The notes under the pieces: model-generated
What the model was told of the DNA's origin: nothing
Database searches by the model: none
The model's input: the letters and a program-made list of their open reading frames with translations, nothing else
Origin: Gammaproteobacteria bacterium
Lineage (GTDB): Bacteria > Pseudomonadota > Gammaproteobacteria > UBA4575
Assembly: GCA_965222615.1 (NCBI GenBank)
Contig: CBDCUI010000009.1
Span: 288,001-352,000, forward strand
Reading direction: 5' to 3'
Length of the DNA stretch: 64,000 bases
Position numbers and translations under genes: made by a program
In this document: positions 5-55,964 of the stretch, piece after piece
How positions within the stretch are numbered: position 1 is the stretch's first letter
Layout of the letters: every line of letters begins with the position of its first letter

Positions 5-745
5 GTGATTACTCCAACTGTCAACACCACAAAAGCCATTAAACCTCAGCCTCGACCTCAATATGACCGTCGAATTGCTCAAATGCATATAATGGGTAAA
101 CCAGTCGTGAGTACGGCCAAAAAGATTGAAGACGCCCCAGATACAACCTTAAACCTTAAACTATTGGGCGTACTTGCAGGAGGTAAAGAGTATGGCTATG
201 CGATTATTTCTAGTGGTACCAATAAAGTAAAGCATTATGCATTGGGCGACGATGTGCCTGGTGGAGCAACATTACATGCAGTATACCCTGACCGTGTGAT
301 TTTAGAACGCGATATCCGTATGGAAACTTTGCGCTTACCCAAATCTCAAGCAACAAAATTTAGCAAAACTAAGTCTAAAAAGCCCAAGCAAAGCCCCCAA
401 GCTGCCGATATAACCACACAGTCGTTTGAAACACTAGGCCAATTCCGCCAAGAAATGCTGAAAAATCCTGTCAAGCTCACTCAGTTTATCAATGCTATTC
501 CAGAACAAGATAGCGAAACGGGAGAATTCAAAGGCTATAAACTCACTCCCAGTACTAATTCTGAAATGTTTTATCAATTGGGTTTGCAGCCAGGAGACCT
601 TGTAACCAATATCAATGGTATACAACTTGATCAACCAAATAAGGGCCCAGAGGCACTTAATGCACTAGCGGATGCTTCGGAGATTACTTTGATTGTTCAG
701 CGGGAAGGAACCGAGTTAACGTTGTTTCAGGATTTAAGCCAATAG
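5..745 (+). CDS. gspC: Type II secretion protein GspC (probably 5'-truncated by the window edge), HR + PDZ domains
   Basis: LKLLGV...VYPDRVIL...ETLRL HR-type segment; C-terminal PDZ-like GLQPGDLVTNING; directly upstream of the secretin. Confidence 0.85.
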   Translation: MITPTVNTTKAIKPQPRPQYDRRIAQMHIMGKPVVSTAKKIEDAPDTTLNLKLLGVLAGGKEYGYAIISSGTNKVKHYALGDDVPGGATLHAVYPDRVILERDIRMETLRLPKSQATKFSKTKSKKPKQSPQAADITTQSFETLGQFRQEMLKNPVKLTQFINAIPEQDSETGEFKGYKLTPSTNSEMFYQLGLQPGDLVTNINGIQLDQPNKGPEALNALADASEITLIVQREGTELTLFQDLSQ

Positions 746-907
746 TATCTTTAAACCGTTAGTCAAAGAATATTTGACACAGAGATGTAACTTTATGTGG
801 GATAAGGAATTTTCGTGTATAAATATAAAAGTCTGCCAAACTGAGCATTGCATCTTTACCAACTTGAACCATCATGATAATTTACTCTGTATAAGCGTGA
901 TAACTAT

Positions 908-3031: not shown

Positions 3032-3048
3032 AGATGGAGTAAGGATCT

Positions 3049-4590: not shown

Positions 4591-4609
4591 TTAGATCCCT
4601 CAATCACTT

Positions 4610-5827
4610 ATGCCTGCATTCGAATACACTGCTCTAGATAACCATGGCCGCGAGAAACGTGGCGTTATTGAAGGCGATAGTCCTCGCTCTGCTCGCCAAC
4701 AACTTCGCTCAAAGGGTTTTGACCCACTTGCAATCAACCAAGTAAAAGAACGTCAAGATAAAAAGTCGGTTGGTAGATTTTTTTCACGTGGAATGAGCTC
4801 CACCGATCTGGCGCTGTTTACACGGCAACTTGCAACCCTGGTTCGCTCTGGAACCCCTTTAGAAGAAGCTTTACGTACCATTGGTAAACACACCGAAAAA
4901 CCTCGTTCTAAGCGCATCATCATGGGGGTACGATCACGAGTTACAGAAGGTTACTCACTGGAAAAAGCTTTAAGTGAATTTCCTTCGGCATTTCCTGAAC
5001 TATTTCGTGCAACCATTGCTGCCGGTGAAAAATCGGGACATCTCGATGCAGTATTGGAACGCTTAGCCGATTACACAGAAACACGTCAAGAAACACAACA
5101 AAGTGTGATTGGCGCTTTATTTTACCCTCTTGTGTTATTGATTATTGCCATTTCTGTGGTAGTTCTTTTAGTCACGCTTGTCGTTCCCAAAGTGGTAAAC
5201 GTCTTTACTGATATTGGGCAAGAGTTGCCCCTACCCACAAAAATTTTAATTGCTACCAGCGATTTTTTAATTGCGTATGGAATATACATATTGATTGCCA
5301 TTATTGTTGGGATTTTTCTATTTCGACGTGCTATGCGCAGTGAAGTATTTCGCGCCAGAGTACAAAAGTTTTATCTTGGTTTGCCAGTAGTCGGTCGATT
5401 AACGCGAGGATTAAATACCGCGCGATTTGCACGTACTCTCAGTATTATGGTGGCATCAGGGGTACCGGTACTTGATTCTTTAAGAATCGCAGCAGAAGTA
5501 GTGGTTAACCGGCCGATGCGTCATGCTGTCCAAGAAGCAGCGGTAAGCGTGAGCGAAGGTGCAAATATTCATACTTCGCTGGAACGCTCGGGACATTTTC
5601 CGCCTATGACGTTGCATTTAATCGGTAGCGGTGAACAAAGCGGTAATCTTGAAGAAATGCTAGATCGCGCTGCATCTCAACAAGAACGCGAACTAAATAC
5701 CATTATTAACACGACTCTTAAATTATTGGAGCCACTAATCATTGTACTCATGGGTGTTTTTGTATTAGCGATTGTGATGGCCATTTTGATGCCGATATTT
5801 AATCTAAATCAGATGGTAGGCCAATAA
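4610..5827 (+). CDS. gspF: Type II secretion inner-membrane platform protein GspF
   Basis: FTRQLATLV, GEKSGHLDAVLERLADY, LLEPLIIV; position in operon. Confidence 0.96.
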   Translation: MPAFEYTALDNHGREKRGVIEGDSPRSARQQLRSKGFDPLAINQVKERQDKKSVGRFFSRGMSSTDLALFTRQLATLVRSGTPLEEALRTIGKHTEKPRSKRIIMGVRSRVTEGYSLEKALSEFPSAFPELFRATIAAGEKSGHLDAVLERLADYTETRQETQQSVIGALFYPLVLLIIAISVVVLLVTLVVPKVVNVFTDIGQELPLPTKILIATSDFLIAYGIYILIAIIVGIFLFRRAMRSEVFRARVQKFYLGLPVVGRLTRGLNTARFARTLSIMVASGVPVLDSLRIAAEVVVNRPMRHAVQEAAVSVSEGANIHTSLERSGHFPPMTLHLIGSGEQSGNLEEMLDRAASQQERELNTIINTTLKLLEPLIIVLMGVFVLAIVMAILMPIFNLNQMVGQ

Positions 5828-6063
5828 AGGTTTTGTATTTCAGGGTGAAACTACTTTAATTATTCAATATATCTATTTGATATAGAAGAATATTATTTTT
5901 CTTAGCCCCTTCTAATTGCAACGATTCAGTACTCGCCAATCATCTACCTAAAATGACCAATAAAGACGATCGGTGGTCAGACTGCAGTGTAATTCTTGTT
6001 ACAATTTAACAATATTTATCTTTAATAATCAGCGAGTTATTAACCTTCGAAAGAGAGAATAAA

Positions 6064-6501
6064 ATGTCTACAAAAAACTTTTCTCGCCGGATGCGAGGCT
6101 TTACCCTAATAGAAATCGTTGTAGTTGTTGTCATTATTGGATTGCTGGCGGCAATGGTTGCACCCCGAGTGATGAAACGAACTGATGATGCAAAAATAGT
6201 ACGTGTAGCGAATGATATCCGCGCTATTGAGGCTTCTTTAAATCTTTATAAATTAGATAACTTTAATTATCCCTCTACAGAACAAGGCTTACAGGCACTA
6301 GTCACTCAACCTACCGGTACACCTGAAGCAAAAAATTGGAAGCAAGGCGGCTATCTGCGTAACGTACCGAAAGACCCTTGGGGAAATGATTACCAATACA
6401 CAAGTGATAGTTCATCATTCGATCTTTATTCCTTAGGTGCAGATGGAAAAACCGGTGGTGAAGATATGAATAAAGATTTATCCATTGCAGACCTTAATTG
6501 A
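6064..6501 (+). CDS. gspG: Major pseudopilin GspG
   Basis: RGFTLIE class III signal; YPSTEQGLQALV; PKDPWGNDY. Confidence 0.96.
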   Translation: MSTKNFSRRMRGFTLIEIVVVVVIIGLLAAMVAPRVMKRTDDAKIVRVANDIRAIEASLNLYKLDNFNYPSTEQGLQALVTQPTGTPEAKNWKQGGYLRNVPKDPWGNDYQYTSDSSSFDLYSLGADGKTGGEDMNKDLSIADLN

Positions 6502-6510
6502 TTACTAGAC

Positions 6511-7029
6511 ATGAAAAAAGAAAACTACGGGTTTACCCTTATTGAGCTACTCGTAGTAATTTTTATTATCGCAGTCGTGATATCTGCAGCAACCATCACA
6601 CTTGGTGATAATCAAGCTAAAAGGATGGAACAAAAATCACAACAATTGGCTGCAATTGTTAATCTTGCGAAAGAACAAGCCATATTTAATTCTGAAGAAC
6701 TTGGTGTACTCTTTAGTAAAGATGCCTACTCTTTTTATCGATTAACTACACAACAAAATAAAGACGGAAAAGAAGTATCAACCTGGGTACCTATTCAGGA
6801 TAATAAATTATTGAATAAAAGAAGTCTGCCTGAAGGTCTTGAATATGAGTTATTTTTAGAAGGAATTAAAGTTGCCTACACTAAAAAAGAAAAAGTCTCA
6901 CCACAAGTATTTATTCTCTCAGATGGTTCGATTACCCCTTTTCAAATAAAAATCACAGATAAAATTGATCATAGCCATACTTTAAAAGTTGCTGAAAATG
7001 GTGAATTTGAGTTTTATGCAATCAATTAA
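6511..7029 (+). CDS. gspH: Minor pseudopilin GspH
   Basis: GFTLIELLVV prepilin signal; PQVFILSDGSITPF; operon order. Confidence 0.9.
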   Translation: MKKENYGFTLIELLVVIFIIAVVISAATITLGDNQAKRMEQKSQQLAAIVNLAKEQAIFNSEELGVLFSKDAYSFYRLTTQQNKDGKEVSTWVPIQDNKLLNKRSLPEGLEYELFLEGIKVAYTKKEKVSPQVFILSDGSITPFQIKITDKIDHSHTLKVAENGEFEFYAIN

Positions 7030-7036
7030 GTAGCAA

Positions 7037-7420
7037 ATGTATTCATCATTCAATAAAACTACAGGATTTACTCTTTTGGAAGTACTTGTAGCGCTTGCGA
7101 TTATTGCGCTTGGTATGGCGGCTGTTATTAAAACGGTTGCATCCACTACTGTCAATTCATCTTACCTACGCGATAAAACCTTTGCTAATTGGGTTGCGCA
7201 AAATCAATTAGCGGAAATTGAACTGAGTCCGGTGAAGCCAAAATTTGGATTTAGAGATGGGGATGAAACACTAGGCGGCATCAAATGGTATTGGACAAGC
7301 AAGGTAGATAAAACAGAAGATCCTGATACAAACCGAATTGAAATTACAGTGCGCAGAGATAAAGATAAAAATGCCCAAAATTACGCGACACTCGCCAGTT
7401 TATTCTATGACCCTAACTAG
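7037..7420 (+). CDS. gspI: Minor pseudopilin GspI
   Basis: GFTLLEVLVALAIIA; ANWVAQNQLAE. Confidence 0.92.
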   Translation: MYSSFNKTTGFTLLEVLVALAIIALGMAAVIKTVASTTVNSSYLRDKTFANWVAQNQLAEIELSPVKPKFGFRDGDETLGGIKWYWTSKVDKTEDPDTNRIEITVRRDKDKNAQNYATLASLFYDPN

Positions 7421-7428
7421 TCAATGCA

Positions 7429-8037
7429 ATGATTAATCCTCGTAATATTAATATTCATGGCTTCACGCTTATCGAGATGGTGGTAGCTACTGCAATATTT
7501 GCTATAGTTGGTGCACTTGCCTATGGCGGTTTGAATCATGTACTGAATAATCAGGAACATATACAAGATTCTGCTGAACGATTAAAAGATCTACAACTTA
7601 CCTTTCGTTATTTAGAAAAGGACATTAGTCAAGTAATCGAGCGTTCTGTGCGCGACCAATATGGTGATATCCAATTTGCGTTTGCAGGCGATCAAGATAA
7701 AGTTTTCAGCTTCACGCATTCAGGATGGCGTAATCCGGCAAATTTAGTACGTAGCAGATTACAACGTGTCACCTATGAACTTTCTGACAATACTTTAAAA
7801 CGCTATAGCTGGACCCATCTCGATGGTGCAATCACAGAAGAGTTCTTCTCCACAAATTTACTAGAAGAAGTTGAATCTATAACACTTCGCTATCTTGACC
7901 AAAATAACCAATGGCAAGACACTTGGCCACCTTTGAACTCCAATCCTCAAACGATTGGTATACCCAAAGCCTTAGAGATCACGGTTAAAGCAAAACCTTG
8001 GGAAGAAATTAAACGAATTTTTGCTGGACCAACCTAG
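7429..8037 (+). CDS. gspJ: Minor pseudopilin GspJ
   Basis: GFTLIEM; GWRNP; RSRLQRVTY. Confidence 0.92.
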   Translation: MINPRNINIHGFTLIEMVVATAIFAIVGALAYGGLNHVLNNQEHIQDSAERLKDLQLTFRYLEKDISQVIERSVRDQYGDIQFAFAGDQDKVFSFTHSGWRNPANLVRSRLQRVTYELSDNTLKRYSWTHLDGAITEEFFSTNLLEEVESITLRYLDQNNQWQDTWPPLNSNPQTIGIPKALEITVKAKPWEEIKRIFAGPT

Positions 8038-8991
8038 ATGGATAAAACAATTACCTATACAAAACAGTCGGGTATTGCAGTGATCACCGCGGTATTAGTA
8101 CTTGCCATCGCTGCGACAGCAGCAGCTACGATTGCGGCAAATTATCAGTTAGATATGCATCGCACTGAAAATTCCATTATGAGTAGTCAGGCATGGGCGT
8201 ATGCAAAAGGTGCAGAACAATGGACGATGGCAATTTTAGCAAGAGATTTAAAAGATAGTGGTAACTATGATGGTTTTGATGAACCATGGTGGAATGATGG
8301 TCAACCCCTTACCTTTCCTCTACCTGGAGGCTACATTCAAGGTAAAATTGAAGATGCAGAAGGCAAGCTGAACTTGAATAAACTGGTTGAAGCAAATAAG
8401 CCCAATCAATTGATGAAAGAGCGTGTATCACGCTTATTATTTTTATTAGATATGAATCCAAGCCTAGTTGATGCCATTATTGACTGGATCGACGGGGATC
8501 CCAATCCTGCTGGACCGAATGGGGCTGAGCAAGATATTTATCGAGGTTTAGAAAATGCATATTTGCCAGCTGATCAGCCTATGAAAGATATATCAGAATT
8601 GAGATTGATCTATGGCTTTAGTCAAGAGATGTATGATGAACTCACCAAATATTTGACTGTTTTGCCCGCTCAGGACTCATCATTAAACTTAAATACTGCC
8701 CCTGCATTAGTATTAGCAAGCTTAGATACAAAAATAGGCTTAAATCTTGCAGAGCAGCTTGTAGCAGAAAGAGAAGATAAGCCTTATGAGAGTGCAGCCG
8801 ATTTCTTAAGGCATCCAGAGTTACAAAGGCAAGGGGTTTCAATTAACCCTGATGGGCTTAATGTAAGAAGTAGTCATTTTAATTTAATTACTACATCAGT
8901 AATAGGCAAAAGCCAAGTTAAAATTACCAGCACGATTCATCGTGGTGGAGCAAATAATTTGCAAGTAATTAAGCGAAGCCAAAATCTATAA
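8038..8991 (+). CDS. gspK: Minor pseudopilin GspK
   Basis: QSGIAVITAV (no Glu5); GKLNLN; IIDWIDGD; LNLNTA. Confidence 0.92.
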   Translation: MDKTITYTKQSGIAVITAVLVLAIAATAAATIAANYQLDMHRTENSIMSSQAWAYAKGAEQWTMAILARDLKDSGNYDGFDEPWWNDGQPLTFPLPGGYIQGKIEDAEGKLNLNKLVEANKPNQLMKERVSRLLFLLDMNPSLVDAIIDWIDGDPNPAGPNGAEQDIYRGLENAYLPADQPMKDISELRLIYGFSQEMYDELTKYLTVLPAQDSSLNLNTAPALVLASLDTKIGLNLAEQLVAEREDKPYESAADFLRHPELQRQGVSINPDGLNVRSSHFNLITTSVIGKSQVKITSTIHRGGANNLQVIKRSQNL

Positions 8992-9002
8992 AGAGGCATC
9001 CA

Positions 9003-10250
9003 ATGCAAGAAACTGTAATTATATATGTGCAAACAGATCTGCTCGAAACGCTTGATATTGAAGACTCACATTTTGTCAAGTGGATGAAGTTAGACGAAGA
9101 AGGCATTCCTATTACACGTGGAGCAGAAGCTCGTTTAGAACAAGTATCCTCTGTTACACAAAATGCGCACGTGATTGTGTTACTGCCCCTGCAGCAGATG
9201 CTACTTACAAAAGTAAATACACGCGCACGTAAAGTGAAGCATTTACAAAAAGCAGTGCCGTTCGCCTTAGAAGACGAGCTGGCTGATGATATAGAAGACC
9301 TGCATTTTGCGCTTGGCCAGCGTTATGGAGAAAATGATTACCCGGTTGCAGTAATTGAAAAAACTACGTTAGATACTATATTAGAAACACTAGCAAGTGT
9401 TGGTATTTATCCCGATATCTTGACTGCTGATGTTTTTGGCTTACCAATTCGAGAAGGTAGTTGGACTATTTTAATTGAAGATGACCGTGCTTTGGTACGC
9501 ACATCAAGATTTAATGGTTTCACTATTGACTTGCATAATCTCCAACAAATTTTAACCTCTTCATTACGACAGGCTGATGAATCTCCAACAGAATTAAATG
9601 TTTATCGCTGCGAAAGTAGTGAAAGCAATATTAAAAAATTTAACTTCCCAATAAATAGCAATGAGTTAGATGATTGCCCTCCTGGCTTATTCGCGGATGG
9701 CTTGGATGAAGATGAATGTATAAATTTATTACAAGCAAGTTATCAAAAGAAAGATAAAAGACATCGACAGTTTGCACCATGGAAATACGCTGCAATATTG
9801 TTTGCAATTTGGATAGGATTATCTCTTGTATCTGTATTTATTGACCATGCCCGTTTAGAAAAGGAAGAAAAACGTTTGGATACGCAAATTGAGCAAGTAC
9901 TGCGAGAAACTTTTCCAAATATACAAAATGTATCCAATCCTCGACTGCAAATGGAGCAACGCTTAAAGAATTTCATTGCAGATACAGCACCTGGCTCCCA
10001 AGCTAGCTTTATGGAATTACTCGCAGTAAGCGGTGAATCCATGAAACAAGCTGGCAAAGTCGGTATCAATACCATGAGCTACCGTGAAGGAAAATTAAAC
10101 GTCGAGGTAGAATCTCCAGATATTCAAATCCTAGATACAGTTAAACAATCATTAAAAACTAAAAACTATTTTGCTGATATAAGATCAGCAAACACTAAAG
10201 GCTCAATCGTTGCAGCTAAGCTTGAAATTAGTAAAGGAGAAGGCAAATGA
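9003..10250 (+). CDS. gspL: Type II secretion protein GspL
   Basis: AVPFALEDELADDIEDLHFA; INLLQ; one transmembrane segment. Confidence 0.9.
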   Translation: MQETVIIYVQTDLLETLDIEDSHFVKWMKLDEEGIPITRGAEARLEQVSSVTQNAHVIVLLPLQQMLLTKVNTRARKVKHLQKAVPFALEDELADDIEDLHFALGQRYGENDYPVAVIEKTTLDTILETLASVGIYPDILTADVFGLPIREGSWTILIEDDRALVRTSRFNGFTIDLHNLQQILTSSLRQADESPTELNVYRCESSESNIKKFNFPINSNELDDCPPGLFADGLDEDECINLLQASYQKKDKRHRQFAPWKYAAILFAIWIGLSLVSVFIDHARLEKEEKRLDTQIEQVLRETFPNIQNVSNPRLQMEQRLKNFIADTAPGSQASFMELLAVSGESMKQAGKVGINTMSYREGKLNVEVESPDIQILDTVKQSLKTKNYFADIRSANTKGSIVAAKLEISKGEGK

Positions 10251-10732
10251 AAGAATGGTGGGACTCATTACAAGCCAAAGAGCGCTTGTTAGTTACAATA
10301 GGAGCTGTAGCTGTTGCCATTGCAATTTTATATCTAATAGTGTGGTCACCAATTGTAGAAAGCCGTAATAATAAAAAAATGCGAGTTGAAAATAAGCGTG
10401 AGACACTAGTTTGGATGAGCCAAAAGCAACAAGAAGTTACACATTTAAAAAGGATGAATCCAAATTTATTCAATCAGGCTACCGATAAACGATCATTACT
10501 TGCTATTGTTGATACTGGTGCTAAGCAAATGGGAATCCGCTCTTCAATTACTAGCATTACTCCAAACGGTGAAGATAAAGTACAAATAGCACTTGAGGAC
10601 ATGATATTTGACCGTTTAATTGTTTTATTAGGGGAATTAAATCGCAGGAACCATATACTGGTAGCAAGCACATCATTAACGAAATCTGATCAAATTGGCA
10701 AAGTTACGGGGAAAATACTTCTGTCAAAATAA
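10247..10732 (+). CDS. gspM: Type II secretion protein GspM
   Basis: MKEWWDSLQAKER followed by a transmembrane helix; overlaps the gspL stop. Confidence 0.88.
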   Translation: MKEWWDSLQAKERLLVTIGAVAVAIAILYLIVWSPIVESRNNKKMRVENKRETLVWMSQKQQEVTHLKRMNPNLFNQATDKRSLLAIVDTGAKQMGIRSSITSITPNGEDKVQIALEDMIFDRLIVLLGELNRRNHILVASTSLTKSDQIGKVTGKILLSK

Positions 10733-10758
10733 TTCTGCATCATGCATAAGTATGTAAA

Positions 10759-11499
10759 ATGAAATTGGCACTTAAAATAATTGCAGGGCTTGTAATATTC
10801 GCATGTGCATTTGTTTACTTTGCCCCTGCAAGTCTTATTCAAAAGTTCCTACCAAACGATATTACTGTTTCTGGCGTAAGCGGAACAGTATGGAATGGAA
10901 ATTTACAAACTATTGTCTTTGATCAGATTGGTATTCAAAATACAAAATGGTCATCAAACCCACTTAGCCTGTTAACAGGAAAGCTTAAGGCAGACGTTTC
11001 AATCAACTCCAATAATCTTAAGGGTAACTTTGAAACTAGCTATTCTGGTACGAAAGTAAGTGCTAATGATGTCCTGCTCAAGGGCGACTTATCTCTGCTG
11101 ATGCCATATTTTGAAAAATATGGGCTAACCATAAGTGGCCAATTCAATGCAGACTTTAATTCACTAGAAGTTGCTAACGGCTTGCCTAAATATGCCGATG
11201 GAGTCTTACATACTTATAACACCAATATACTTGGGATATTCCCACTTAACTTAGGCGATATTACAGGTGTATTCGAACAACAAGGACAAGACATGCTGAT
11301 TAAGGTTGATAATAGCAGCGGTGAACTAGATTTAAATGGTGCTATTACCGTTGATGAACATGGGAACTATTTTGCAGATATGACTTTTTCTAAAAATTCA
11401 AATACGTCTGATCAAATTTTACAAACTATTCAACTATTGGGAACAAAAATTGGTGAAGACACTGTTAAAATGACACAGTCAGGTCAACTTCGTATTTAA
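10759..11499 (+). CDS. gspN: Type II secretion protein GspN
   Basis: FAPAS...VSGTVWNG motif; last gene of the gsp operon. Confidence 0.85.
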   Translation: MKLALKIIAGLVIFACAFVYFAPASLIQKFLPNDITVSGVSGTVWNGNLQTIVFDQIGIQNTKWSSNPLSLLTGKLKADVSINSNNLKGNFETSYSGTKVSANDVLLKGDLSLLMPYFEKYGLTISGQFNADFNSLEVANGLPKYADGVLHTYNTNILGIFPLNLGDITGVFEQQGQDMLIKVDNSSGELDLNGAITVDEHGNYFADMTFSKNSNTSDQILQTIQLLGTKIGEDTVKMTQSGQLRI

Positions 11500-11886: not shown

Positions 11887-13317
11887 CTATACTGAAGCAT
11901 CGATATATTCAATTGCTTTATCAATACGCTCTAAGGTTTTAACAGACCCCAATAATTCCAAGGTAACATCGATGGAGGGTGATTTTGATTTGCCGGTTAC
12001 GGCTAAGCGTAACACAGGGGCAACTTCTCCAAATTTAAGGTTTAATTCTTGCACAACCGATTTAATGCATTGCTGTATATTTTCTGCATCCCATTTATCC
12101 AATGTATTTAGCTTGCTTTTTATTAACCTTAAAATATTTATGCCATCAGAAGTAAAATACTTTTTTACCGCTTTCTCTTCATAACTATTTATATCACTAT
12201 GTAAAAAAGCGCTTTCATCAATAAACTCTTTTAACGTTTTGCTTCGATCTTTTAATATGTCATAAATAACAGTTAAATCACGATTGACAAGGACATTTAT
12301 ATCATATTTAAAGGTAAAATCAGATTGAACAGAAGTAATGTATTTGTCAAGAACTGGCCTTAACTCTGAACCACTAATATTTTTCATATGCTGATGATTG
12401 ACCCACAATAATTTTTCATAATCAAACGTTGCTGCAGATTTTTGTATCGACCCTACATCGAATAATTCAATCATTTGTTTTACGGTGAATAACTCTTGGT
12501 CTCCATATGACCAACCGAGTCGAAGTAAATAATTTAATAAAGCTTGAGGCAATATCCCCTCTTTCCTATATTGGGTTACCGAAACTGCACCATGACGTTT
12601 GGATAGTCGTTTGCCGTCTTTGCCATGAATCAATGGAATATGAGCATATACTGGTGGTTGTTTGTTTAATGCATTGAAGATATTTATTTGTCTAGGTGTA
12701 TTATTTAAATGATCATCTCCTCGGATCACATGGGTTATTTTCAAATCCAGGTCATCGGCCACTACGCATAGGTGATAAGTAGGTGATCCATCTGAGCGTG
12801 CAAGAATCAAGTCATCTAGCTCACTATTTTGTATTTCTACATGTCCACGTACTTGATCTTCAATGATTACCAACCCATCCAATGGGTTTTTAAATCGAAT
12901 TACAGGTTTATTGCTTGTATTTGGCTTATTTTTTAAATCTCTACAAAAACCATCATATCTGGGTTTTTGTTTACTTTTTATTTGTTGCTCACGCAGTTTC
13001 TCTAAACGTTCTTTTGAACAATAACAATAATAGGCATCACCTTGTTCTAATAGTTGTTGTATAGCCTGCTCATACCTCTTTGTTCTTCTCGATTGGTAGA
13101 TAGGTTCTACATCCGAATTTATTCCCAACCATGCTAAACTTTTCAGAATATCTTGAGTAAATTCTTGGCTAGAACGAGCTCGATCAGTATCTTCGATACG
13201 TAAAATGTACTCACCATTTTGTTTCTTTGCGTACAGCCAATTAAATAAAGCCGTTCGAGCACCACCGATATGTAGAAAGCCTGTGGGGCTAGGAGCAAAA
13301 CGAGTTCGTGTTGTCAT
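11887..13317 (-). CDS. gltX: Glutamate--tRNA ligase
   Basis: RFAPSPTGFLHIGG (HIGH-type), LRIEDTD, KRLSKR (KMSKS-type). Confidence 0.97.
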   Translation of the reverse strand: MTTRTRFAPSPTGFLHIGGARTALFNWLYAKKQNGEYILRIEDTDRARSSQEFTQDILKSLAWLGINSDVEPIYQSRRTKRYEQAIQQLLEQGDAYYCYCSKERLEKLREQQIKSKQKPRYDGFCRDLKNKPNTSNKPVIRFKNPLDGLVIIEDQVRGHVEIQNSELDDLILARSDGSPTYHLCVVADDLDLKITHVIRGDDHLNNTPRQINIFNALNKQPPVYAHIPLIHGKDGKRLSKRHGAVSVTQYRKEGILPQALLNYLLRLGWSYGDQELFTVKQMIELFDVGSIQKSAATFDYEKLLWVNHQHMKNISGSELRPVLDKYITSVQSDFTFKYDINVLVNRDLTVIYDILKDRSKTLKEFIDESAFLHSDINSYEEKAVKKYFTSDGINILRLIKSKLNTLDKWDAENIQQCIKSVVQELNLKFGEVAPVLRLAVTGKSKSPSIDVTLELLGSVKTLERIDKAIEYIDASV

Positions 13318-13537: not shown

Positions 13538-14431
13538 TTATAATGAACTGAAATGGATCAAGTCAGGTTCACTATCATCGACGATTGTTTTTCCTAGGCT
13601 AATCTGGCCTTCTCCCCAAAGAGGGAATTCTTCACGGCGTAGATATATACTTCTTCCATCATCAGTCAGTATATAAGTTCCATTAGTGCTTTTATCCATT
13701 AGCAAGAACTTGCCCCTACGATATTCAATCGTAGCATGTTGTCGAGAAACTAATGTGCCTTCAATGATAATGCTGCAACTTGCATCTCGCCCTAGCGTTA
13801 ATGCCGGCATATTTGCTAACAATGCTAGCTCAGTTTCTTGAAAAGAGAGCTGCAATTTTGATGATCTCATTTTTTCCAACGAAGTCGTACCAGACAAAAT
13901 TTGTGTAGATGCTTCACCCTCCCAGAGGATCTCATAAATTATGGTTTGTTCTTGACGACCCTTAATACGGGAGGTGTCATAGCGACGAGTAAAATGACTA
14001 ATCTCAGGTGGAATATGTTGAACCATCTCGTCAGTTGCAATGATTTGGCCGCCTTTAGCAATATCACGCATTGCAGCTGCAACATTCACGGCATCTCCAT
14101 ATAGATCAGTGTCTTCAATAATTGCAGATCCATAATGCATCCCTATACGCAGTGCTAACTGGACACCATTGGGGTCAACGGTTTCTTTAGCAATTTCCTG
14201 CAATTTAAAAACCGCTTGAAAAGCCATTTCAGGATCCGTCAAATAGCATAAAATTTCATCGCCAATAAATTTAACCACCGTTCCACTGTGACGCTTGATA
14301 ACTTCTGAAAGTCTGATTAGGCATCGAGCAATACTATCTTGTGCAAGGGTGTCACCATATTCTTGATATAGTCTTGTACTGCCCGCGATATCCACGAACA
14401 TAATCGTACAATCTTTAGTTTCTTTACCCAT
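13538..14431 (-). CDS. Class III adenylate/guanylate cyclase domain + C-terminal FHA domain protein
   Basis: MFVDIAGST, VKFIGDE, GDAVNVA cyclase motifs; FHA motifs LGR, VSRQHA, STNGT. Confidence 0.9.
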   Translation of the reverse strand: MGKETKDCTIMFVDIAGSTRLYQEYGDTLAQDSIARCLIRLSEVIKRHSGTVVKFIGDEILCYLTDPEMAFQAVFKLQEIAKETVDPNGVQLALRIGMHYGSAIIEDTDLYGDAVNVAAAMRDIAKGGQIIATDEMVQHIPPEISHFTRRYDTSRIKGRQEQTIIYEILWEGEASTQILSGTTSLEKMRSSKLQLSFQETELALLANMPALTLGRDASCSIIIEGTLVSRQHATIEYRRGKFLLMDKSTNGTYILTDDGRSIYLRREEFPLWGEGQISLGKTIVDDSEPDLIHFSSL

Positions 14432-14439
14432 TATCAGAT

Positions 14440-15111
14440 TTAAAACTTTTGCTCGAGCTTCATGACCCGGCCTTCATTGACTATGTTCAATCGTCCAAGA
14501 TAAGACATTCCAAGCAACGGAGTAGAAGGTTCATTGCCATCGATAACTACAGCGGCAACATTTCTCAACATTATTTCACCAACTTTTACTTCATCTAGAT
14601 TGACCGAATAGGCCATTTCAGTCCCGGAAGCCGTAGTGACATAAGTATGATCACCGTTAAGTTTATATTGCAAACCCAATCTCTTGGCTGTATTTGAATT
14701 CAATGCGATGCTACTTGCTCCTGTATCAACCAGAAAATCAACAGTATAGCCGTTGATGGACCCTGTTGTCTTGAACATACCATTGCTATCTGGGTAAACC
14801 AGGAGCTTCTTCTTATCTTGTGTTGCGTAACTAGCTTGTACACGATTACCCAGGCCAAATTTTGACTGTTTCCCATGCACTTCAAGAACAGCATATTTAC
14901 TCGTGGCTTTGATTAATTTAACCCCAGCTTTTTCTGGCTCACCAACTTTTAATAAGTGCTGTTCATTATTTATCATAACCATAGCTTTATTTTTAAATAA
15001 GGCCATAACTTCGATACTGGTATCTGCAAAAACTTCACTTATACACACTAATAATGCAAAGAAAGTTACATATACATAATGCCTTGTCTTATATGTGTAT
15101 AATGTAGTCAT
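14440..15111 (-). CDS. Retropepsin-like (clan AA, TIGR02281-type) aspartic protease with N-terminal signal/anchor
   Basis: FLVDTGAS catalytic motif; LLGMSYL C-terminal motif. Confidence 0.9.
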   Translation of the reverse strand: MTTLYTYKTRHYVYVTFFALLVCISEVFADTSIEVMALFKNKAMVMINNEQHLLKVGEPEKAGVKLIKATSKYAVLEVHGKQSKFGLGNRVQASYATQDKKKLLVYPDSNGMFKTTGSINGYTVDFLVDTGASSIALNSNTAKRLGLQYKLNGDHTYVTTASGTEMAYSVNLDEVKVGEIMLRNVAAVVIDGNEPSTPLLGMSYLGRLNIVNEGRVMKLEQKF

Positions 15112-15117
15112 TTCCAG

Positions 15118-16185
15118 CTAGGCTGAAACTTTCTTTAAGTATTGAGTAAACTGCCCTTTGTCGTTAGCAGCCTCAAATGCTATTTCCGGTGATATGGCTT
15201 CATCCGTTAATAATTTCTTAATCGCTGTATCCATACTTTGCATACCAAAAGAACCACCACCTTGAATGGAATTATCGATCTGATCGGTTTTACCTTCGCG
15301 AATAATATTGCCCATCGCAGGCGTATTAACCATGATTTCTAGAGCAGCTACTCTACCCTTTCCATCTTTACGTTTTAGTAATTGCTGAGATATTACTGAA
15401 CGTAGTGAAGTCGACAGCATCGTACGAATATGATCCTGCTTATTTACTGGGAAAGCATTAATGATTCGATCAACGGTTGACGCCGCACTATTCGTATGCA
15501 AGGTTCCAAGTACTAAAATTCCTGTTTCTGCAGCTGTAACTGCAAGACTCATGGTTTCTAAATCACGCATTTCACCAACAAGGATTACATCTGGATCTTC
15601 TCTTAATGCCGAATGTAGTGCACTTGCAAAAGTTTTAGTATGCTCGCCAACTTCTCGTTGACTTATTAAGCATTTCTTTTGTTCGTGAATAAATTCGATT
15701 GGGTCTTCGATAGTTAAAATATGTCCTTTATGGGTAGAATTAATTGCATCTACCATAGCCGATAAAGTAGTGGACTTTCCTGATCCAGTTTTACCCGTTA
15801 CTAAAATCATACCTGCTTTCTGATTACAGATATTGCTTAAAGCTGCTGGTAGATTTAGATCTTCTAAGGTTGCAGTTTCCGCAGGTATCGATCTAAAAAT
15901 TGCTCCAATACCATTTAAATGTCTAAATGCATTGACTCGAAAACGACCAGTCCCCTCTATAGTGTAGGCGAAATCAGCATTATCATCCTTTTCAAAAATA
16001 GTTCGAGCACGGTTCGGCATCATATTCATAATCGGTTCTAGCATTTCTTTAGCTGGAATTGAGTCTTCTGAGATAGCTTCTAGATCACCAAATACCCTCA
16101 TTCGAGGTGGATCGCTAGATACTAAATGCAAATCTGAGCCGCCACGTGCTACAAGCATTTCTAAAAGAACATCAATATCTACCAT
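15118..16185 (-). CDS. pilT: PilT-family ATPase (paralog 2)
   Basis: GSDLHL, GKTGSGKSTT, EDPIEF, LREDPDVILVGEMRD, GTLHT. Confidence 0.85.
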   Translation of the reverse strand: MVDIDVLLEMLVARGGSDLHLVSSDPPRMRVFGDLEAISEDSIPAKEMLEPIMNMMPNRARTIFEKDDNADFAYTIEGTGRFRVNAFRHLNGIGAIFRSIPAETATLEDLNLPAALSNICNQKAGMILVTGKTGSGKSTTLSAMVDAINSTHKGHILTIEDPIEFIHEQKKCLISQREVGEHTKTFASALHSALREDPDVILVGEMRDLETMSLAVTAAETGILVLGTLHTNSAASTVDRIINAFPVNKQDHIRTMLSTSLRSVISQQLLKRKDGKGRVAALEIMVNTPAMGNIIREGKTDQIDNSIQGGGSFGMQSMDTAIKKLLTDEAISPEIAFEAANDKGQFTQYLKKVSA

Positions 16186-16202
16186 TGTGACTTTCTCATG
16201 AT

Positions 16203-17285
16203 CTAACTAGCTTTGGGTAACAACGCCGGATCAGTGACAAAACGTTGCAGCAATTTTTTATCACTTGCATGTAAATAAGCATCATCTGGATCAATTTGCT
16301 TCGCTTGCACTGCCTCAAGCAACGCTTGATCTTTTAATTGCATACCAATAGCGCTTCCAGTTTGAATTTGATTAGGTATCTGGAAAGTTTTATCAGACAT
16401 GATCAAATTAGAGATGGCATTGTTCATCATCATAATTTCAACAATTGCCCTTCTTCCCCTACCATCAATTGTTTTAACCAGCTCTTGTGTTACCACGGCA
16501 TGCAAGTTTTGCGATAAGAAAATTTTGCCTTGTCCTTGTTGCTCTGCTGGTAATGCATCAATGATACGGTCTAGTGATTTAGTTGCCGATGTGGTATGCA
16601 AGGTGCCAAACACTAAATGTCCTGTCTCAGCGGCAAGCATGGCCATAGATATGGTCTCTGAATCTCGCATCTCACCTACAAGTATAATATCCGGATCCTC
16701 TCTAAGAGAGGCGCGCAAACCATCAGAGAAGCTTTTCACATGCGTACCAACTTCGCGTTGTATGACTTGTGATTTTTTACTTGGATGAATAAATTCGACT
16801 GGATCCTCTAGAGTAATAATATTTTCCTTGCGGGACTTATTGATGTGATCAATTAAGGATGCAAGGGTAGTAGATTTACCTGTTCCAGTAGAACCCGTGA
16901 CTAACACCATTCCTTGTTTAAAGTCTGCAAATGTCTTAATTACTGGGGGTAAATTTAAAGTTTCAAATGAAGGGATCTCTGTTGGTATATGACGAAACGT
17001 AGCTCCTACTCCCGAAGATTTTCTAAATAAATTAATACGAAATCTCCCCACGCCTTCCGACATATATGAAAAATCTAGATCATTTCCATTGCGGAACTTT
17101 TCTTTTTGTGATTTTGTAAGAATTTCGCTCATATAGCCTTCCAGCTCGCTATCACCTAAGTCCCTAAATTTAATGGGAACTAAGTCCCCATGCATGCGAA
17201 ACATAGGAGGCACACCAACTGCTAAGTGAATATCAGAACAACTTTGTTCACGGCCAAGTTTTAAAAATGCATCTATTCTTGCCAT
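16203..17285 (-). CDS. pilT: PilT-family ATPase (paralog 1)
   Basis: CSDIHL, GSTGTGKSTT, EDPVEF, LREDPDIILVGEMRD, GTLHT. Confidence 0.85.
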   Translation of the reverse strand: MARIDAFLKLGREQSCSDIHLAVGVPPMFRMHGDLVPIKFRDLGDSELEGYMSEILTKSQKEKFRNGNDLDFSYMSEGVGRFRINLFRKSSGVGATFRHIPTEIPSFETLNLPPVIKTFADFKQGMVLVTGSTGTGKSTTLASLIDHINKSRKENIITLEDPVEFIHPSKKSQVIQREVGTHVKSFSDGLRASLREDPDIILVGEMRDSETISMAMLAAETGHLVFGTLHTTSATKSLDRIIDALPAEQQGQGKIFLSQNLHAVVTQELVKTIDGRGRRAIVEIMMMNNAISNLIMSDKTFQIPNQIQTGSAIGMQLKDQALLEAVQAKQIDPDDAYLHASDKKLLQRFVTDPALLPKAS

Positions 17286-17295
17286 AACTAATTTC

Positions 17296-19680
17296 TTAAT
17301 TCATCGAATTTTGAATACTGTCTTTTAGCTCTGTCATAGACTGAAAACGGTGGTCAGCTTTTACACTCATACATTTTGCAACCAAATCATTTAAATCAGC
17401 AGGTACCGCTTCATTTTTTTCGCTTATTTTTTCTGCTTTCCCCTGCACGTGTTGATACATTATCGACATACTGTCTTTGCCAGAATAAGGCGGTCTTCCA
17501 GTCAGCATTTCGTACATGATTACACCTAAGCTGTAGATATCTGTTCTTTCATCTACTTCTTTACCTAATACTTGTTCTGGCGCCATATAGGTAGGTGTGC
17601 CAACAAGTAGGCCGGTTTTTGTTAATTTTGTATCTGTAGATTGTGTTGCTGCAGCTACCCCAAAATCTACAATTTTTAGCAAGCTATCCTCGTTTATAAG
17701 TATATTATTGGGCTTTAAGTCACGATGCACTACATTAGCAGCATGTGCACTCTCCATTCCACTGCACACATCAAAAGTAAGTTTCTTTGCTCTTTCAATA
17801 TCCATTGGTTTTTTATCTTTTACTTCTGCGCTTAAAGTATGACTTCTAAAGTACTCCATAGAAATAGCATGAGCCTTACCAAAAGAAACCATGTCATAAA
17901 TTCGTATCACATTGGGATGTGTAATTTTACGTGCAAACCGTAATTCATAAATAAAGCGTTTAATAATGCTTTCATCTGTTACAAATTGTGTATTCAAAAA
18001 TTTAAGAATGATTTCCTCGTTAATCATCATATCTTCAACTAAGAATACAGAGCCAAATGCGCCTTTACCGATTTTTTTAATATATCGGTAGCGATCGGCT
18101 AACATATCATCAGGCTGCAATTCATCAGGATTAATGGTTAAGGTTTCCATGGTACGGTTACCACGTACCACTTTATCTGGCATCGTAATAGGACCTTCCT
18201 CACCGGCTTCCTCTGTCTCGTCCTTGAATACCTGAATGGAAGAACCTGGAGGTTCTTGTTCAACAATACTGTTTATTGCCTTTTGTCCCAGCTCTTGGAT
18301 TTCTTGGTTTTGATCTGCGATAACGTCATCGATTGCTTTGATTGCTATTTCTACATCTTTTTCTGTAGTGATAACCTTAAGTGTTTTAATCGCCTCCTTG
18401 ATGACGTTTTCAGAATCTGTTTTTAATTGTTTGATTGTAATCCTTACCGCTTCTTCAGCTTTGAGTGTTGCAAAAGCCTTTAACAGTACCACTACCATGG
18501 CAGTATTATCTGAATTTTCAGATAACATTTTCATTAAAATAGGCACACACTTTTTATTACCTAATTCTGCGAGCCCATCTATAGCACGCTCTCGCACCCA
18601 CCAATCAGAATCATCGAGCGCTTTCACTAGTGCATCAAAGGTACTTTGATCTTTAGTAGCATTGATAATTTCAATTGCAGACCGCCGAATAAATTCATCG
18701 TCATCTTTTATTAACTGAATTACGGCATTCACTACACGTTTACCACCAATTTTACCAAGCGCATCTGCTGCCCGACTCCTCACCCACCAATCTTCATCTT
18801 TTATTGTATTGAGTAAATCTTTAACAGAATCTTTACTTGCTATTTCATTTAGCACTTCGACTGCAGCCCTGCGTGTGTATTCAGACTCGTCTTTTAAGTG
18901 AGGGATTAAGTGGAAGACCGTTTTAGGATGTTTAATTTTTACTACGGCTTCGATTGCTTTAGTCTGAACTTTATAGTCAGGATCATTGATTAATGCGCAA
19001 AGTTTTTCTATATCGATTTTGTTGCTAGAATTTGACAGGCCTTCTAATGCAGCCAACCGTACAGCCTTATTTTCATCAGATAATAATTTTTCGAGTGACT
19101 CATTGACACCTGGCTTATCAAACTTGGACATTAGCTTAGTTATATAAGTCCGTACTATTGGGTCTTTTGTGTCTGCTCTGTTAATTAACTCTGGAACCAT
19201 CGTTTCACTAGCAATGGCATCTAACAAACGAAATAAAGAGGCTTGGTCATTATGTTCAAGCTTATAGGCATAACGTAAAAGTTTTGATGAGTTAACTTTT
19301 TGTTTTTGTGTGCTTAAGAAAGTTATTAACATAGGTTTAGATGCATCTTGTTTTTCGAACAAGTCAACAAATCTATTTGGATCTATATTCTGTGATCGTG
19401 ACATTGCCTCAGCTACACCATCACGCACTAAATTACTTTGGTGAGAAAATAAAGGTCTAAAATATTCTGAATTTTCGGTGGTTGCGAGATCAGACAGGAT
19501 ATTAATAATCTGCTTAGCTTCTTCTTTATTGCTGGTTTCAAATCTTTCGGCAAGTTTAGGAATTGCAGATTTCCCGGCCTTATAAAGCTTTTTTACATTC
19601 TTGTCATAGTCAGGCTCAGATCTTTTTGTTAAGACCTGATCGATCAAACCATCAACTCGAATTGCTCCGAAAACTCCCAT
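17296..19680 (-). CDS. HEAT-repeat protein fused to a C-terminal Hanks-type Ser/Thr kinase
   Basis: Repeated D.DWWVR..A..AL-type HEAT/PBS repeats; kinase motifs GKGAFG, HRDLKPNN, DFG, GTPTYMAPE, DIYSLG; no evident transmembrane helix. Confidence 0.92.
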   Translation of the reverse strand: MGVFGAIRVDGLIDQVLTKRSEPDYDKNVKKLYKAGKSAIPKLAERFETSNKEEAKQIINILSDLATTENSEYFRPLFSHQSNLVRDGVAEAMSRSQNIDPNRFVDLFEKQDASKPMLITFLSTQKQKVNSSKLLRYAYKLEHNDQASLFRLLDAIASETMVPELINRADTKDPIVRTYITKLMSKFDKPGVNESLEKLLSDENKAVRLAALEGLSNSSNKIDIEKLCALINDPDYKVQTKAIEAVVKIKHPKTVFHLIPHLKDESEYTRRAAVEVLNEIASKDSVKDLLNTIKDEDWWVRSRAADALGKIGGKRVVNAVIQLIKDDDEFIRRSAIEIINATKDQSTFDALVKALDDSDWWVRERAIDGLAELGNKKCVPILMKMLSENSDNTAMVVVLLKAFATLKAEEAVRITIKQLKTDSENVIKEAIKTLKVITTEKDVEIAIKAIDDVIADQNQEIQELGQKAINSIVEQEPPGSSIQVFKDETEEAGEEGPITMPDKVVRGNRTMETLTINPDELQPDDMLADRYRYIKKIGKGAFGSVFLVEDMMINEEIILKFLNTQFVTDESIIKRFIYELRFARKITHPNVIRIYDMVSFGKAHAISMEYFRSHTLSAEVKDKKPMDIERAKKLTFDVCSGMESAHAANVVHRDLKPNNILINEDSLLKIVDFGVAAATQSTDTKLTKTGLLVGTPTYMAPEQVLGKEVDERTDIYSLGVIMYEMLTGRPPYSGKDSMSIMYQHVQGKAEKISEKNEAVPADLNDLVAKCMSVKADHRFQSMTELKDSIQNSMN

Positions 19681-22868: not shown

Positions 22869-23438
22869 TTATTGAATGTTTAGGGTATACATCGTCATGG
22901 GCATTGCAGAAGAGTTGTTGAAGGTTGCACCCGCCTCGATGCCAATTTTTGCAATATTTTCAACATCATCTTCTTGATCATATATTGCATACATTGCGCC
23001 TAACGCAATGTCTCCTCCAGAACCGAGTGCCCAAAACTTCGAGTATTCAAACACTTCTCTGAGCGAATAAACTGCAAAAATACCATGTGGATTTACAATT
23101 AAAGTATCGATACGCGAAGATTCATAGGGGTCATCCTCTTCATCCTTCGGATTTAGATAGTAATCTTCTTTTAGGATTGGATGAAGCTTACGAAAAGACT
23201 CAAAAACTTCAAAGTGACTTTTAAAACTAAGTTCCTCGCCATGGTTTTCTAAAATACTTTTTATTACCATATGATGTGCAGCACTACCAACAATTCCAAA
23301 GTAATTGTTTTTATATAAATGAATTTTTTCATGGGTAAGATCATATTCACTTGACTGCTTAATCTCACCAAAAGTGGTCAAAGTATCAGCTGCTATACAC
23401 ACCTTACTATTTTTCTTAACTGCGACTATTGTTGACAT
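22869..23438 (-). CDS. Proteasome-beta/HslV-like Ntn-hydrolase (BPH-like)
   Basis: N-terminal MSTIVAV...IAADT; ALGSGG; 189 aa. Confidence 0.7.
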   Translation of the reverse strand: MSTIVAVKKNSKVCIAADTLTTFGEIKQSSEYDLTHEKIHLYKNNYFGIVGSAAHHMVIKSILENHGEELSFKSHFEVFESFRKLHPILKEDYYLNPKDEEDDPYESSRIDTLIVNPHGIFAVYSLREVFEYSKFWALGSGGDIALGAMYAIYDQEDDVENIAKIGIEAGATFNNSSAMPMTMYTLNIQ

Positions 23439-33769: not shown

Positions 33770-34029
33770 AAGATATCACGCTCCAACTTCACTTCGGCCA
33801 ATTCTTTACGAAGCTTTGCCATTTCATCACTTGGATCAATGGGCTTTCTTCCTGATCCACAAAAGGCCGCATCGCCTTTCTCTTTGAGCTGGCTTTGCCA
33901 TTTATAGAGTTGATTGCGACGTACACCGAGCTCTAGGGCTAAGTCATTTGGATTACGTTCACCTTCTTCTAATAAACGTACCGCTTCTATTTTAAATTCT
34001 TTTGTATACGTACTTCGTTTGGCCATCAT
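33730..34029 (-). CDS. IS3 OrfA (HTH transposase subunit)
   Basis: YTKEFKIEAVRL...ERDILKKAAAYFAKE; A-AAA-AAG slippery site at 33763-33769. Confidence 0.9.
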   Translation of the reverse strand: MMAKRSTYTKEFKIEAVRLLEEGERNPNDLALELGVRRNQLYKWQSQLKEKGDAAFCGSGRKPIDPSDEMAKLRKELAEVKLERDILKKAAAYFAKEVK

Positions 34030-36778: not shown

Positions 36779-36793
36779 ATTATATGCGCTTCT

Positions 36794-41651: not shown

Positions 41652-41673
41652 TTTTACCTATTCACAATGAACT

Positions 41674-42306: not shown

Positions 42307-42307
42307 A

Positions 42308-55920: not shown

Positions 55921-55964
55921 AACATTTCTCCTAAATGGCATACCTAATTTGTTGGACAACACTG

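Follow-up and report, generated by a model that had tools for sequence, protein, structure and literature searches.

What could hold a Ser/Thr kinase, two ATPases of the PilT kind, a protease and a nucleotide cyclase together in one tight row of genes? The question is raised by a 64,000-nucleotide stretch of DNA from a gammaproteobacterium (GTDB lineage UBA4575; GenBank assembly GCA_965222615.1, contig CBDCUI010000009.1, positions 288,001 to 352,000 of the forward strand), the whole of which is called the window in the following. In the list of open reading frames (ORFs) of this 64-kb window, five ORFs stand in tandem on the minus strand with spacers of 10, 17, 6 and 8 nt. They encode a HEAT-repeat Hanks-type Ser/Thr kinase (17296..19680, 794 aa), two PilT paralogues termed K1 (16203..17285, 360 aa) and K2 (15118..16185, 355 aa), a predicted anchored envelope protease (14440..15111, 223 aa) and a class III cyclase fused to an FHA domain (13538..14431, 297 aa); all further coordinates within these genes also refer to the minus strand, and domains of the operon proteins were assigned with Pfam and NCBIfam. 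A sequence-only reading of this DNA, made earlier by a model, had listed the same co-oriented genes and gaps, with which the ORF list agrees, and had proposed one self-contained five-gene system. Our analysis shows that the conserved unit is smaller: it is made up of three genes, the HEAT kinase, K1 and K2, to which the cyclase-FHA and protease genes are lineage-specific additions.

This follows from the distribution of the genes in other genomes. Searching species genomes with the kinase yielded over 582 relatives; 74 loci were retained, and their gene order was mapped by tblastn. The order kinase, K1, K2 was present in all 66 retained loci whose sequence extends 2700 nt or more beyond the kinase, the other 8 loci being too short to show the order. 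A class sample of 401 evenly sampled Gammaproteobacteria genomes was searched with the HEAT region (residues 1-520), which matched in 55 of them. Strong matches with frames of about 800 aa were obtained in 51 genomes carrying 32 family labels; these include the window's genome and one genome flagged as unpublished (G301), and a weak match (G044) is flagged likewise. The triad was found in 19 of the 20 loci fetched from diverse families of this sample, and its order persists across contexts down to approximately 40% kinase identity. The flanking genes differ, being pgpA and gltX in the window and its nearer relatives and apbC and metG in loci labeled Woeseiaceae and Steroidobacteraceae. In a reverse search with K1, 79 new loci were detected, 6 of them at K1 level (64-68% identity), and in 5 of these 6 a HEAT kinase lies directly upstream. 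The other 73 loci were ordinary PilT genes and uninformative, generic PilT motifs having been used in this search.

The remaining two genes of the operon are confined to few loci. The protease was found in 8 of the 74 loci (L009-L015, L020) and in 2 of the 20 diverse ones, all nearer relatives of the window, and cyclase-FHA among the 74 loci in L009-L014 and L020, in the same pgpA/gltX context as in the window. Co-occurrence in other genomes, which the sequence-only reading had itself put forward as a test that could refute it, thus holds widely for the kinase-K1-K2 triad and in nearer relatives of the window for the two further genes, and the idea of a self-contained system of five genes gives way to a core of a kinase and two PilT paralogues.

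Within this core, a physical contact between the kinase and K1 is predicted. A controlled complex prediction was carried out for this pair alone, in which HEAT residues 1-480 and K1 were each supplied with a 71-row alignment and compared with three controls. The interface score ipSAE was 0.62 (runs 0.65, 0.62 and 0.61), the best of the three controls reaching 0.00; the runs shared at least 91% of their contacts, and the pLDDT of the partner was at least 85. In a benchmark, 116 of 157 solved complexes and 2 of 215 mismatched pairs attained the mark, figures which apply only roughly here as own alignments were used. We know of no solved HEAT-PilT complex, and a pass from model memory therefore seems unlikely.

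On the kinase side, the predicted interface comprises residues 297-299, 306, 337, 360-361, 365 and 368, that is, both copies of a D-x-D-W-W-V-R repeat (297-299 and 360-361) and their neighbors. These repeats belong to the most conserved part of the HEAT core (aa 233-374; 18559..18984), which would form the docking surface for K1. On the other side, contacts fall in residues 3-65 of K1, within its N-terminal domain (aa 1-65; 17091..17285). The K1 contacts L10, Q14, I38, K39, F40, R41, E47, Y51 and E54 occur in all 28 K1 sequences compared, other residues standing at these positions in K2, PilT and both PilU clades. Among the HEAT contacts, 9 of 25 are at least 90% conserved as compared to 67 of 455 residues elsewhere (Fisher p 0.009); since the model also sees the alignments, this conservation is to be taken as consistency and not as independent proof. 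Taken together, the prediction supports docking of the Trp-Trp repeats of the kinase on the N-terminal domain of K1, and, as regards binding to one of the two paralogues, it lends weight to the earlier suggestion of a HEAT scaffold/kinase that controls or senses a dedicated PilT pair.

The kinase consists of a HEAT solenoid (approximately aa 1-470) in which five HEAT_2 stretches are recognized, a variable linker (470-525) and the catalytic domain (aa 525-794; 17299..18108), where Pkinase matches at residues 531-782 with an E-value of 4e-56. The Hanks motif residues G538, G540, K560, E579, H652-R653-D654, N659, D672-F673-G674 and P701-E702 are invariant in 71 orthologues, and of the activation-loop threonines T687 is found in 71, T689 in 70 and T684 in 66 of these 71. 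A hydropathy scan revealed no hydrophobic segment in the kinase, K1, K2 or cyclase-FHA. Motif alignment and hydropathy scan hence agree with the description given before of a kinase with intact Hanks motifs, N-terminal HEAT repeats and no transmembrane helix. The names given to the kinase in databases are generic. A second kinase of similar frame length in the same genome (C9:137 kb) has an N-terminal kinase domain and was rejected as a HEAT paralogue. In PADLOC the kinase domain matched the PD-T4-6 and MADS (mad6) kinase models, the other four operon proteins gave weak matches only and no complete defense system was found; a reading as anti-phage defense was discarded, these matches being at domain level and confined to the kinase.

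K1 and K2 both score as members of the PilT/PilU family (TIGR01420; 427 and 446.7 bits, respectively, cut-off 319.1), and the solved structures nearest to them are PilT proteins (3jvu, E 7.5e-94). PilT proteins are described by a set of named motifs, and a role is ascribed to their AIRNLIRE-type C-terminal motif. Walker A and B, the Asp box and the His box are all present in the consensus of each clade, with Ile in place of the first His of the latter in K2. Of the AIRNLIRE-type motif, K2 retains most, and in K1 it is degenerate. K1 is 64-92% identical among its 70 orthologues and has a conserved N-terminal stretch and a C-terminal tail of its own. This tail (16206..16256), in which F346, V350, T351, D352 and P357 are near-invariant, is a candidate phospho-site judging from its sequence.

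A tree of 74 PilT-family sequences resolved five clades, namely PilT, PilU, a third PilU-like group, K1 (SH-aLRT 100) and K2 (SH-aLRT 99). K1 and K2 are placed on the PilT side, nearer to PilT than to PilU, and the stem branch of K1 is long; as long branches meet where K1 and K2 join, the tree is read for the separateness of the clades only. The K1 and K2 subtrees show parallel groupings, as expected under vertical descent. Five PilT/PilU-family genes are present in the window's genome, a tandem triple of pilT, pilU and the third gene on another contig and the K1-K2 pair, and the same three-plus-two pattern was found in 5 relatives. Besides the window's genome, 39 of the 50 strong carriers have five PilT-family genes, 10 have four and 1 has three, where five stands for at least five because at most 5 matches were scored per genome. 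Since every carrier has at least three PilT-family genes, the K1-K2 pair supplements the canonical motors rather than replacing them. This gene content gives mild support to a pilus-linked role, as at least one PilT-family match occurs in 326 of the 400 scored genomes of the class, so that four in five genomes have PilT anyway, and as kin are not independent.

The FHA proteins encoded beside the triad vary between lineages. Around the 20 diverse triads, 67 of the 120 flanking ORFs, the nearest ones, and 1 further ORF were scanned, and an FHA gene was found beside the module in 12 of the 20 loci. Cyclase-FHA occurs in six loci (L149-L153 and L155); in two of them, L153 and L155, the gene is convergent, and in L152 it is broken into two ORFs. 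FHA-only proteins are encoded directly after K2 in four (L158 with two copies, L160, L161 and L162) and FHA-GAF-HD proteins in five (L158, L161, L162, L164 and L166); a PP2C gene lies beside the module in one (L164). Because the window's genome has only about 10 FHA matches in 3.1 Mb, adjacency in 12 of 20 loci is far above chance placement. The order pilT2, protease, cyclase and the gaps of 6 and 8 nt are kept down to approximately 42-51% identity (L149, L151). The resulting picture is that of a constant kinase-motor core to which exchangeable phosphothreonine readers are attached, and not of one co-evolved five-gene system.

In the window, the reader is the cyclase-FHA protein, with Guanylate_cyc at residues 4-163 and a C-terminal FHA domain (aa ~197-297; Pfam match 212-260, E 2.4e-13). 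The residues of the phosphothreonine pocket, G214, R215, S229, R230, H232 and N250, are invariant in 10 orthologues, which together with the Pfam matches bears out the previous assignment of a canonical FHA domain fused to a class III cyclase domain. In class III cyclases a Lys/Asp pair is typical of ATP use, and a transition-state Arg stands four residues after the conserved Asn. The cyclase domain contains the metal-binding aspartates D14 and D58, the pair K54/D109, N116 and K157; among the orthologues D14, D58, D109 and N116 are invariant and K54 is near-invariant. In all 10 orthologues the linker between both domains harbors a T-x-I-[LMIH] motif, which follows a conserved Trp/Gly at a distance of 6-8 residues. 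Its threonine, Thr176 (13904..13906), is a candidate phospho-acceptor and FHA ligand by analogy.

For the protease, TIGR02281 (clan AA) scores 114 bits against a cut-off of 57.95, and the residues D129, T130 and G131 of its DTG motif are invariant. The hydropathy scan showed a single hydrophobic segment, located at the N-terminus. In the AlphaFold2 model (pLDDT 83.7), a helix (3-23) is followed by a small beta domain (29-96) and a retropepsin domain (100-223). The retropepsin-like catalytic domain with the DTG motif (14443..14814) matches the structure 5c9b (phmmer E 4e-9; VIA-align Z 16.0, rmsd 2.4, 124 aligned residues; Foldseek E 4e-11). A possible proteolytic step in the envelope, as considered before, is in line with these predictions of a membrane-anchored envelope protein.

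The beta domain (aa 29-96; 14824..15027) resembles in the model the small domains of GspC-HR/PilP type that bind secretin N0 domains. Its best VIA-align match is 3oss_C, the HR of GspC bound to GspD (Z 7.0, rmsd 2.1, 59 of 65 residues), followed by GspB (Z 6.2), PilP (Z 5.5, 5.0 and 4.9), LspC (Z 4.7) and the HR of PulC (Z 4.6), all of which have Z < 8 and can reflect merely a common arrangement. By sequence, no Pfam T2SSC match was obtained, and hhalign against the window's own GspC was non-significant (E 0.055). The likeness is suggestive. In a second TIGR02281 paralogue of the genome the anchor runs to the protease, with no room for an HR-like domain. If the likeness is real, the protease would be aimed at a secretin, PilQ or GspD, and it alone in the operon would point physically to an envelope machine; the fusion of a retropepsin to a domain of secretin-binding type is a combination that we did not find reported.

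The module is flanked by housekeeping genes, gltX downstream and pgpA-thiL-nusB-ribH upstream. Promoter and terminator scans of the locus gave counts at the level of shuffled sequence. As stated previously, the operon has no pilin, pilB or pilC gene, and none of the triad contexts examined showed a linked pilus structural gene; filament-type genes are found elsewhere in the window. A complete type II secretion operon, gspC-N, occupies positions 5-11499 (plus strand), its gspC being cut by the window start; it faces gltX in convergent orientation and stops 2 kb short of the module, gltX alone lying between. A type IV pilus minor-pilin cluster is located at 36317-42892 (minus strand) and encodes GspH/FimU-like, Tt1218-like, PilW, PilX and PilY1-like (1112 aa) proteins as well as a pilin with a ComP_DUS domain, the type of DNA-uptake-sequence receptors.

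How might these parts work together? We propose that a pair of PilT paralogues with a docked kinase passes its state on to FHA-fused second-messenger enzymes, and we give this reading about an even chance of being right. K1 and K2 would form PilT-type hexameric motors beside the canonical PilT/PilU retraction motors. The sensor-less Hanks kinase would be tethered to the motor, its HEAT solenoid gripping the N-terminal domain of K1 via the two Trp-Trp repeats, and its activity would thereby report, or set, the state of the motor. The resulting phosphothreonines, perhaps on the kinase, the K1 tail or the reader, would be read by FHA proteins that vary with the lineage. In the lineage of the window, the FHA domain would bind the phosphorylated linker threonine, two cyclase domains would meet as in the cyclase DgcB, and the state of the motor would become a cyclic-nucleotide signal. 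The added membrane-anchored periplasmic retropepsin may dock with its HR/PilP-like domain at the secretin of the type IV pilus or of type II secretion. In this scheme we infer the make-up of the hexamers, the substrates, the direction of signaling, the activation of the cyclase, the filament that is served and the target of the protease. In a bolder version, which we think unlikely, the triad would be a self-contained mechanosensor in which the docked kinase reads the load on the motor, or whether it is engaged, and FHA-fused enzymes turn phosphothreonine into a cyclic-nucleotide signal. If true, this would be a route of surface sensing without a chemotaxis-like Chp system, reaching the envelope in this lineage via a secretin-docked protease.

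Several observations weigh against this proposal. The HEAT-K1 interface is a prediction, not a measurement. The bare triad is the commonest form of the module and stands between apbC and metG in loci labeled Woeseiaceae, Steroidobacteraceae and others; no FHA gene was present among the scanned neighbors in 8 of the 20 diverse loci. In L159, the lone exception among these 20, the kinase is followed by rpsF with no PilT pair downstream, in a genome with 5 PilT-family matches (again to be read as at least 5), and in L255 a K1-K2 pair stands without a kinase within 4 kb upstream. The window's genome contains 7 Pkinase matches above the Pfam cut-off, 1 more below it and 10 FHA matches, and the pairing of kinase and FHA protein by neighborhood is therefore not exclusive. 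More than 570 relatives of the cyclase-FHA are spread over many phyla, and of the best 80 loci, which were inspected, 77 (some of them short) have neither a HEAT kinase nor a PilT pair within 7 kb; the 3 loci with the triad are all close kin of the window, and 7 others have a different kinase domain nearby. The FHA domain of the cyclase gave no match at E 1e-3 to the FHA-only partners of other variants, and its closer paralogues are two FHA proteins encoded elsewhere in the window's genome (39% identity over 105 residues). No dedicated phosphatase is encoded in the operon, the two PP2C genes of the genome both lying away from it. Finally, the canonical transition-state Arg of the cyclase is replaced by Ala120 in the window and the 4 closest orthologues (within L009-L013). 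Arg is kept at this position in 5 distant orthologues (within L149-L155) and in the solved homologue 3mr7, and another Arg is found two residues after Ala120. To judge from these residues, the window's cyclase may be weak, or the Arg two residues on may be used instead; with the canonical catalytic Arg missing, cyclic-nucleotide output in this organism is uncertain. Of the earlier idea that the signal reaches the cyclase through FHA, the phosphothreonine hand-over fits the FHA genes at 12 of 20 loci, and the cyclase end is weakened by the mostly module-free life of its family and by the missing Arg. The parallel then drawn to cAMP/Vfr in Pseudomonas is retained as an analogy only.

Other readings account for parts of these data. 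A plain switch, in which the kinase phosphorylates K1 and K2 as alternative type IVa retraction motors turning them on or off, and the cyclase-FHA and protease genes are unrelated neighbors that entered the operon by drift in one lineage, would agree with the full PilT/PilU membership of both ATPases by score, the AIRNLIRE-type motif kept in K2, the canonical PilT-family genes in all 50 carriers, the frequency of the bare triad and a cyclase-FHA family that mostly lives elsewhere. It leaves unexplained that FHA genes of three architectures accompany 12 of 20 diverse triads, that two cyclase-FHA genes stay adjacent despite inversion and that the pilT2-protease-cyclase order is kept with its 6 and 8 nt gaps to approximately 42-51% identity, and we judge it to be improbable. 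Somewhat less probable still is a machine independent of pili, in which K1 and K2 are PilT-fold hexamers acting on another substrate, in protein or nucleic-acid remodeling or in conflict and defense, with the kinase as regulator. Such a function would suit a triad with no linked pilus structural gene and a K1 whose stem branch is long and whose AIRNLIRE-type motif is lost. The kinase domain's similarity to the PD-T4-6 and MADS models also points this way, but it is at domain level, and the other proteins match weakly. Furthermore, stable housekeeping neighborhoods and parallel K1 and K2 trees are unlike typical defense islands, and every carrier has canonical PilT-family genes.

The neighboring gsp operon raises a further possibility, namely that K1 and K2 disassemble or retract the pseudopilus of the type II secretion system (T2SS), that the protease docks on GspD with its HR domain and that the kinase couples secretion to signaling. 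Although the operon ends only 2 kb away with gltX alone in between, gsp genes lie near the module in just 8 of 94 loci (7 of them distinct), which all come from close kin of the window, and elsewhere the triad has unrelated housekeeping contexts. The beta domain of the protease is closest to the HR of GspC in complex with GspD (Z 7.0), but the fold also matches PilP (Z 4.9-5.5), Z values below 8 can be due to a common arrangement and the protease is limited to few lineages. To our knowledge, the T2SS has no dedicated retraction ATPase; on balance we regard a T2SS partnership as very unlikely. That five unrelated genes were packed together by chance is hardly credible and, for the three-gene core, is contradicted by the constancy of the triad order (66 of 66 related and 19 of 20 diverse loci), which survives changes of context and divergence to about 40% kinase identity, and by a predicted interface on clade-specific invariant residues, even though tight packing is usual in small genomes and the promoter and terminator scans are uninformative.

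Further observations were made in the genome of the window. The two FHA paralogues mentioned above (277 and 166 aa) are encoded at G000:C8:438683-441868 (L112), beside a colicin-DNase/WHH ORF and a SUKH immunity-type ORF. A second filament-type cluster at G000:C9:119000-139000 (L116) comprises a secretin, a ParA-fused T2SSE ATPase, an ATPase with a MshEN domain and a T2SSF protein. Three FHA proteins, one of which carries two FHA domains, come next, together with a Hanks kinase whose kinase domain is N-terminal. The organism thus seems to pair kinase/FHA signaling with secretion-type ATPases twice.

Just upstream of the kinase, a gene for a protein of 155-200 aa was found in 12 of the 20 diverse loci (e.g. 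L149:4485-4955). In 6 of these 12 the protein matches Pfam DUF6812 at E <= 7e-4, and relative to the gathering score of 27.1 bits two clearly reach it, two are marginal (27.9 and 27.2) and two lie below. It was not found in the window's genome, which is 99.8% complete, with one sequence or with a 12-row profile. Its model (pLDDT 89.6) consists of two small beta barrels; Foldseek gave no match at E <= 1e-3, and the best VIA-align match had Z 4.5, with Sm/Hfq-like rows at Z 3-4. A PilZ-like domain had been suspected from a short motif, but no fold was assigned on these comparisons. On the other side of the module, a class I aminoacyl-tRNA synthetase gene lies 3' on the same strand in both main contexts, gltX in the window (11887-13317, minus strand) and metG elsewhere (e.g. 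L056:12746-14752), which is probably a coincidence. In one relative, a dCTP deaminase gene two genes from the module is split by an intein with a LAGLIDADG endonuclease domain (L049:4981-6777, minus strand).

Within the window, an IS3-type transposase pair (33065-34029, minus strand; an HTH_Tnp_1 ORF, then an ORF with HTH_21 and rve) lies between purL and an aminotransferase gene. A 189-aa ORF (22869-23438, minus strand) stands between the riboflavin synthase gene and ribD and is odd in a riboflavin operon; it gave a weak match to the proteasome subunit family only (E 4.5e-6, 26.9 bits, residues 2-71). Several ORFs of 136-513 aa at 60986-63311 (plus strand) and 52237-57146 (minus strand) had no Pfam match at E 1e-6, and a 727-aa Laminin_G_3 protein is encoded among the minus-strand ORFs of the latter region.

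The regulation of retraction motors, the conversion of their activity to second messengers and the role of extra PilT paralogues are open questions in type IV pilus biology. The module offers a concrete, testable answer for a large group of Gammaproteobacteria, mostly uncultured and making up roughly one in eight of the sample. In these, a dedicated PilT paralogue seems to have a kinase physically coupled to it, combined with interchangeable output enzymes that read phosphothreonine. It also provides a candidate kinase-reader pair for FHA-gated cyclases; in the solved example, DgcB, the kinase was not identified. Overall, the module seems to be an undescribed way to link a pilus-type motor with second-messenger signaling.

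Comparison with known systems places the module next to several of them. A search of the full text of articles brought up none that ties a HEAT kinase to PilT paralogues, in keeping with the earlier remark that no characterized system has this architecture. With the PilT/PilU pairs of type IVa pili (P. aeruginosa, V. cholerae, Neisseria) K1 and K2 share the arrangement as two adjacent family genes and intact ATPase motifs, and the PilT-like paralogues of M. xanthus (PMC13584747) are counted with these pairs here. Unlike them, K1 and K2 form further clades and are encoded with a HEAT kinase, not with pilus genes, and K1 is also set apart by a degenerate AIRNLIRE-type motif and by an N-terminal surface and a C-terminal tail of its own.

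The threonine phosphorylation pathway of the type VI secretion system (T6SS) consists of the membrane kinase PpkA, the PP2C phosphatase PppA and Fha1. There as here, genes for a Hanks kinase and an FHA reader accompany the ATPase gene of a secretion-type machine, and PP2C is found in the module variant L164. However, the kinase of the module is soluble and HEAT-bearing with no membrane sensor, its ATPases are of PilT type and not ClpV, its reader carries a cyclase, and the window's operon has no phosphatase and no T6SS genes in or beside it. Surface sensing by Pil-Chp activates the class III cyclase CyaB, and FimX-PilZ-PilB exerts cyclic di-GMP control of pilus ATPases. Both tie the activity of type IV pilus motors to cyclic-nucleotide signaling as the module may do, whereas the module has no Chp, PilZ or GGDEF-EAL genes and its link is proposed to run via Ser/Thr phosphorylation and kinase docking.

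In DgcB, an FHA-GGDEF protein of Bdellovibrio, a threonine in the tail is bound, once phosphorylated, by the FHA domain of the protein itself, which leads to the active dimer (PMC6733907). The cyclase-FHA of the window is alike in that FHA is fused to a cyclase that must pair and a conserved threonine outside the domains is the candidate self-ligand. It differs in having a class III cyclase, a C-terminal FHA domain, the candidate threonine in the inter-domain linker and a candidate kinase in the same operon. The protease resembles APRc (ApRick) of Rickettsia conorii (5c9b, 5c9d, 5c9f) in fold, TIGR02281 membership, DTG motif and predicted membrane-anchored envelope location, and differs by the HR/PilP-like domain between anchor and protease and by its operon link to PilT paralogues. 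The parts of the module are all of known kinds, and it is their combination that is undescribed.

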